Assembly: GCA_037379345.1 (NCBI GenBank)
Contig: CM074512.1
Location: 57,185,597 to 57,249,596, forward strand
Direction of reading: 5' to 3'
Origin: Perna viridis
Taxonomy: Eukaryota
DNA: 64,000 nucleotides
Of this stretch, positions 55,877 to 56,060 are shown piece by piece. Position 1 is the stretch's first letter. Each line of letters begins with the position of its first letter. The notes under the pieces were generated by a model. The model made no database searches, had not been told where the DNA came from, and saw nothing but the letters and a program-made list of their open reading frames with translations. The position numbers were made by a program, and so were the translations under genes.

Positions 55877-55906
55877 ATGTGTTATTGTCCTTTCTCGACA
55901 AAATGA
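55877..55906 (+). other. uORF1 in the putative GCN2 leader, MCYCPFSTK*
   Basis: ATG at 55877; TGA 55904-55906 overlaps the ATG at 55903. Confidence 0.45.
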
Positions 55907-55956
55907 CGACAACAGCAATAATGTGTGAATATAGGAGGAGTCTCTGCTATTTATGA
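55903..55956 (+). other. uORF2 in the putative GCN2 leader, MTTTAIMCEYRRSLCYL*
   Basis: CAAAATG start context; TGA 55954-55956 overlaps the in-frame GCN2 ATG at 55953. Confidence 0.5.
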
Positions 55957-56060
55957 AAATGGAAGAGGACTCCCTTCTTCAAAGACAAGAGGAAGAATGG
56001 CAAGTTTTGCAGGCTGTTTACATGGATGATGCTATCGATCTCAGAAACAAGACTTGGAAG
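55953..56060 (+). CDS. EIF2AK4: GCN2 exon 1 (start of RWD domain); start at 55953 or 55959
   Basis: MKMEEDSLLQRQEEEWQVLQAVYMDDAIDLRNKTWK|gtacat; compare human ESYPQRQDHELQALEAIYGADFQDLR. Confidence 0.9.

Follow-up and report, generated by a model that had tools for sequence, protein, structure and literature searches.

A transcribed GCN2 leader that bears short upstream open reading frames and a candidate CARE site in the mussel Perna viridis

The window analyzed here is a stretch of 64,000 nucleotides of Perna viridis DNA, and it carries a gene that by its sequence is GCN2 (EIF2AK4). When exon-sized frames were compared with profiles, the GCN2-type domains were found on the plus strand in the order RWD (PF05773), kinase (PF00069, in two exons), HisRS-like (PF13393) and C-terminal anticodon binding (PF12745). 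Profile matches were obtained for 6 of the 81 exon-sized frames, five of them GCN2-type domains; these matches are single exons that lie mostly under the Pfam cut-offs, and among single exons PF12745 alone reaches its cut-off. The nearest named proteins of exon 1 were Mytilus GCN2 proteins, with 80% identity over exon 1. The domain order and the Mytilus matches agree with the assignment to GCN2 made in the original prediction. The window is part of contig C2 in a genome of 723 Mb; the region gave one match when used as a DNA query, and no Pfam match was found in 48 selected upstream frames (of 226 listed). Table 1 lists the features of the leader and the start region.

TABLE 1 Features of the mussel GCN2 leader and start region
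Feature	Position	Strand	Basis or remark
Initiator-like TCATTT (55821-26) with ETS-like TTCCG (55825) and TTCCT (55831)	55819..55836	+	Motif scan
uORF0, 6 aa, ATGs at 55841 and 55844	55841..55861	+	ORF coordinates; absent from the original prediction
CARE-consensus site TGATGCAAC, at or just inside the transcript 5' end	55842..55850	+	Motif scan
Second initiator-like motif TCATTC, possible alternative start	55851..55856	+	Motif only
uORF1, 9 aa, weak context	55877..55906	+	Lineage specific, variable
uORF2, 17 aa, AAAATG context, second ATG at 55921 (-3 A)	55903..55956	+	Stop lies 2 nt short of the main ATG
Weak in-frame ATG (-3 T), adds Met-Lys	55953..55955	+	End point of the ATGA chain
GCN2 coding exon 1 from the conserved start	55959..56060	+	Splices to exon 2 near 58244; loose ends fit exon 2

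Evidence from RNA was drawn from 4 of the 24 listed runs, namely, three contig runs and the raw reads of run X21. In all three contig runs, which come from three studies, the GCN2 RNA contigs start at 55815, 55835, and 55836. The contigs reach the exon 1 donor and then run on into exon 2, and they therefore represent spliced RNA. About 19% of run X21 yielded 10 raw reads, which share a single strand and do not extend upstream of the 55820-55835 bin. A start cannot be defined from contigs, and the ten reads form no pile-up; we therefore infer the start site, and the first interval in Table 1, with motifs that we take to be initiator-like and ETS-like, is likely the core promoter and transcription start region. 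Both uORF1 and uORF2 lie inside the transcribed leader, and either candidate start (the 55821 or the 55851 region) includes both. A start downstream of 55925 had been named as an outcome that would speak against a role of the uORFs; the transcripts begin at 55815-55836. The predicted fold of the leader was not significant (z = -1.44), and an Rfam search of the leader gave no match at E <= 1.

For comparison with relatives, two scans of metagenome contigs were carried out, in which 0 of 326 and 0 of 121 pattern matches were confirmed as the locus. Since no relative's locus DNA was found, leader conservation rests on peptides. A single relative lineage supplies the full leader as peptide (14 records), in the form of ORF calls (the P0024 cluster and the P0039 cluster) that traverse its leader in the frame of exon 1 and end in intron 1; such an in-frame leader peptide fixes two-thirds of the relative's bases. 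The mussel leader was homologous to that of the relative, scoring 22.9, whereas the highest score among 300 random stretches was 20.3. The leader was then aligned part by part, with 200 random stretches for each part. The upstream flank was not alignable (156 of 200 random stretches scored as high), and 16 of the 18 positions in the start region were compatible with P0024. The motif GTAAACA at 55861-55867, which we take to be FoxO-like, lies in a region that is not alignable with the relative.

The block from the initiator and ETS motifs to the CARE site was kept, and none of the 200 random stretches scored as high for either of two relatives (the P0024 cluster and P0040). The CARE-consensus site fits TGATGxAAx near the start site, and the same 9-mer is also the human CARS element in the available part of PMC5175342, which gives this consensus. 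Among the relatives, CARE can be intact in P0040 and in 5 of the 14 records of the leader lineage, and its first T is excluded in the other 9, with wobble bases left unfixed by the peptides. The CARE site of the original prediction is thus borne out in its match to the consensus and in the conservation of its block, but not in the first T of most relative records.

These observations bear on the possible two-level stress feedback of the original prediction, taken here without any relay between the uORFs. In such a feedback, ATF4-C/EBP at CARE would raise GCN2 transcription, and eIF2alpha phosphorylation would lead to bypass of uORF2, either by delayed reinitiation after uORF0 or uORF1 or by leakier scanning. 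We regard this as a minority possibility. It accords with the position of CARE at the start site within the best-conserved noncoding block, an arrangement also described for one class of ATF4-induced tRNA synthetase genes (PMC5175342, in part). Against it stand the first T excluded in most relative records and the frequency of TGATGNAA, which occurs 31 times on the two strands of the window.

A genome-wide search for an ETS-plus-CARE pattern gave 1,059 matches against 384 for a reversed control; the pattern was too loose and the control was not composition matched, and the result was discarded as evidence. A primer flanking the human CARS CARE contains CCGGAAGT (methods section of PMC5175342, in part), and from this one primer, ETS beside CARE may be an old promoter pairing.

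The original prediction had overlooked both ATGs of uORF0 and the internal ATG of uORF2. Because a sense-strand CARE inside a transcript brings its own upstream ATG, uORF0 would be a by-product of CARE. It is present only in transcripts that start upstream of it, and it is missing if the start is at 55853. Its position is cap proximal, within about 5 to 30 nt of the observed 5' ends, and both this position and its loss from transcripts starting at 55853 weigh against the stress feedback, for which uORF0 is one possible starting point. The stop of uORF0 is 41 nt from uORF2 and 97 nt from the main ATG. This layout, a short uORF followed by a strong uORF and then the main ATG, speaks for the feedback.

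uORF1 stops 52 nt upstream of the main ATG. At position 55877, 3 of the 4 reads from run X21, with three start points, had G instead of A, which converts the uORF1 ATG into GTG, and the contig runs X1, X3, and X4 all had A. In a mussel, an allele would be a likelier explanation than A-to-I editing; the strand is right for editing, yet the predicted fold leaves the base unpaired. In the relative, no ATG is possible between CARE and uORF2 in 12 of the 14 full-leader records, and the allelic records P0038 and P0039 each allow one new ATG site there. The uORF1 region itself was not alignable (148 of 200 random stretches scored as high). The A/G variant provides a natural leader mutant at the uORF1 start. 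We also considered a model in which uORF1 acts as a shield, carrying ribosomes over the first ATG of uORF2 so that reinitiation occurs downstream, 52 nt on. The geometry fits, but the model was set aside, as uORF1 is weak, variable, and unconserved.

Two in-frame ATGs, at 55953 and 55959, precede the GCN2 coding sequence, and the second is in the context AAAATGG. Among 43 exon-1 protein records, a Met two codons upstream of the conserved start is present in that of the window itself and in none of the 42 others, all of which agree with the start at 55959; this comparison assumes that gene callers take the first open ATG. Those 42 records include 18 named ones from four Mytilus species and are redundant gene models, not independent lineages. 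By this protein comparison, the real GCN2 start is 55959, and the ATG at 55953 is lineage specific. Lack of conservation of the upstream ATGs had been put forward as a finding against the proposed mechanism, and it was found both for the ATG at 55953 and for uORF1.

The coordinates in the original prediction were exact: uORF1 at 55877-55906, uORF2 at 55903-55956, ATGA overlaps at 55903-06 and 55953-56, and a second in-frame ATG at 55959. The three ORFs do step through all three frames, as claimed, but since each ATGA overlap shifts the frame by -1, this is the mere arithmetic of two overlaps and adds no evidence. For each of three leader starts, 20,000 dinucleotide shuffles served to estimate how often the chain occurs by chance. 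Its exact two-link ATGA form occurred in 0.4, 0.6, and 0.2% of the shuffles, which counts against an incidental origin. With ATGAAA fixed before the start, a two-link chain occurred in 2.9, 3.2, and 1.5%, and any close stop/start chain in 7.1, 8.0, and 4.6%. Five upstream ATGs were observed against a shuffle mean of 3.3 (P about 0.19). On the two strands of the window, mostly noncoding DNA, such a chain ends at 31 of 920 ATGA sites. Picked after the fact, the chain is uncommon for one gene and expected many times per genome.

The comparison with the relative bears directly on the links, and it does so irrespective of the wobble bases. The base after the RTG at the start of uORF2 is a pyrimidine in the relative, so the first ATGA link cannot exist there. 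At the start, moreover, the relative's leader is shorter by one base, which would put an ATG there out of frame; located 5 nt before the start, it would open an ORF in a frame other than that of GCN2, in which no stop is possible for about 25 codons.

The original prediction had pointed to AUGA overlaps as sites of termination-reinitiation in some viruses; here this would mean that ribosomes pass from uORF1 on to uORF2 and then to GCN2 at the overlaps. We consider such coupling very improbable. The stop and start do lie within the spacing of about 20 nt given for termination-reinitiation (PMC10275272, in part), the two AUGA overlaps are exact and rare in the shuffles, and some viruses and cellular mRNAs couple without UGGGA, and in SLAMF1 a uORF overlaps the start (PMC5972666, in part). 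However, no exact TGGGA, the TURBS motif 1 expected 40 to 90 nt upstream of the stop, was found upstream of either overlap; the only one-mismatch words, at 55924 and 55932, are nearer, 21 to 29 nt before the second overlap. As regards a TURBS stem (motifs 2/2*), the fold of the leader scored z = -1.44, the Rfam search gave no match, and there is no motif 1 for it to present. Neither link is possible in the relative, where the product would be out of frame and the overlap is thus not conserved in frame with the downstream ORF; the target ATG is missing from all 42 other records, and the ATG of uORF1 varies in RNA. The two ATGA overlaps are likely incidental, and as a mechanism they find no support at this locus.

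A different picture was obtained for uORF2. In an ungapped comparison with the relative, 32 of 47 informative positions of the uORF2 stretch agreed, against 16.6 +/- 3.1 expected, and the relative has RTG at the uORF2 start and YGA at its stop, exactly 17 codons apart, with the 54 nt free of indels. The gapped local score was weaker, with 8 of 200 random stretches as high. In the relative, however, GTG is a possible start, a stop could stand at codon 2 or 9, and the last codon could read CGA. The sites as a whole are about 68% compatible, a level at which the start and stop of uORF2 could persist without selection on the ORF. The peptide was not conserved, as at least one base must differ in the relative at 11 of the 17 sense codons. 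Conserved uORF positions would be expected of an ATF4/GCN4-type leader; that of uORF2 is compatible with the relative, and uORF1 is absent in 12 of the 14 records.

With a stop 2 nt short of the main start, whose AAAATG context it shares, uORF2 would remove ribosomes without handing them on, and it likely represses the main ORF. That uORF2 has been kept without indels while the flank and the uORF1 region are not alignable also argues for a repressive uORF2. We therefore favor, at roughly even chances, the reading that this is a transcribed mussel GCN2 leader in which uORF2 is an ordinary repressive uORF and the two ATGA overlaps are incidental.

In this scheme, scanning ribosomes would mostly pass the weak uORF1 and start at uORF2, at its AAAATG or at 55921. 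After the uORF2 stop there would be no room to reload initiator tRNA, and these ribosomes would be lost to GCN2. Reinitiation after short uORFs requires distance, translation of an overlapping uORF and main ORF is mutually exclusive, and even a 1-nt overlap likely precludes ordinary reinitiation (PMC10275272 and PMC5972666, both in part). GCN2 would then be made by ribosomes leaking past uORF2, or by reinitiation after the short uORF0 or uORF1, and GCN2 output would on balance be low and damped.

The upstream ATGs could instead be by-products of DNA-level promoter elements and A/T-rich sequence that barely affect the output, which we judge improbable. CARE contains ATGs by definition, and AAAATGACG at the uORF2 start resembles a YY1 site. 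The number of upstream ATGs is not above that of the shuffles, the strongest conservation sits in the ETS/CARE block, the uORF2 peptide is not conserved, and the leader structure is nothing unusual. However, the uORF2 ATG has the context of the main start, so the scanning model predicts its use, and the 54 nt of uORF2 are indel free in the relative. The element AAAATGACG, which we take to be YY1-like, lies at 55900-55908.

Comparison with known systems places the repressive uORF2 reading among mRNAs belonging to the integrated stress response (ISR). Like ATF4 and GCN4, the mussel gene belongs to the ISR pathway and has several uORFs, with a strong uORF close to the main start and a short one 5' of it. 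However, ATF4 uORF2 has 60 codons and overlaps the main ORF by 27 (PMC12839439, in part), whereas the mussel uORF2 has 17 codons and stops 2 nt short of it, in a leader of only about 105 to 145 nt. The GCN2 leader may work, loosely like that of ATF4, as a uORF-damped ISR mRNA.

In the single-uORF, ISR-resistant mRNAs PPP1R15B and IFRD1, as could be the case here, one efficiently started uORF represses the main ORF. According to the accessible portion of PMC4383229, one uORF suffices there for eIF2 control, as established by ribosome profiling and mutagenesis, which favors the stress feedback. In the same human profiling, however, the regulatory uORFs had more than 20 codons, against 17 in the mussel uORF2, which was deduced from sequence, and translated uORFs by themselves predicted stress resistance poorly: a single uORF can suffice, and the presence of a uORF predicts little (PMC4383229, in part).

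Caliciviruses and influenza B BM2, which use TURBS, and victoriviruses and hypoviruses, which use AUGA or UAAUG, share with the mussel leader the AUGA overlap and the -1 shift. In viruses, AUGA restarts come after long ORFs and depend on an upstream element, which usually has UGGGA 40 to 90 nt before the stop (PMC5972666 and PMC10275272, in part), whereas the mussel leader has no UGGGA core and no significant fold, and its overlaps are not conserved. In human SLAMF1 and mouse GAD, which are also cellular mRNAs, the last uORF overlaps an in-frame start, but there the overlap is UGAUG with TURBS-like cores (PMC5972666, in part), and the ATG overlapped in the mussel is weak and nonconserved. The aminoacyl-tRNA synthetase genes that are CARE-driven ATF4 targets likewise have TGATGxAAx at the start site, and the mussel 9-mer is that of human CARS (PMC5175342, in part); the mussel site, in contrast, is a candidate by sequence and is broken in 9 of the 14 relative records.

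In the part of the literature covered, no report was found of uORF control of GCN2's own mRNA. The available part of a 2026 GCN2 review takes up uORFs only for ATF4 (PMC13580269).

Should uORF2 do no more than dampen output, a kinase of low abundance would here have an ordinary uORF leader. The stress feedback also has a precedent in yeast, where Roussou reportedly described a GCN4-GCN2 transcriptional circuit in 1988. In its fullest form, a conserved start-site CARE would make GCN2 an ATF4 target, and a conserved 17-codon uORF2 ending 1-2 nt ahead of the start would render GCN2 translation either resistant to eIF2alpha phosphorylation or inducible by it, so that the gene would be tied twice to its own pathway within 120 bp; this form appears unlikely. 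If true, it would be a positive feedback on the sensor kinase itself, suiting animals that face tidal starvation and hypoxia. If CARE and uORF2 do respond to stress, the output of the amino-acid sensor would itself control how much of that sensor the animal has.

Several further features were noted around the gene. A Rag GTPase exon (PF04670, E = 5e-28) lies about 27 kb past the last matched domain of GCN2 on the same strand (L007:8210-8473, plus strand; G000:C2 near 57,307,800), so that two amino-acid-sensing genes are near each other. Mytilus has many short GCN2-like gene models (P0002-P0006 and P0008-P0020; 120 to 833 aa), several of which share one longest-contig size; they are either truncated duplicates or annotation fragments. 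At 55148-55240, about 600 nt ahead of the start region, a C run gives way to an A-rich (AAAAAC)n tract. By eye, intron 1 contains three inverted-repeat pairs (56140-56290/56590-56725, 57060-57200/57265-57335, and 57750-57800/57920-57980) that resemble small nonautonomous transposons. Also by eye, the exon 4 acceptor and first codons (60450-60496) have a near-copy just upstream (60366-60410) in which the AG is lost.
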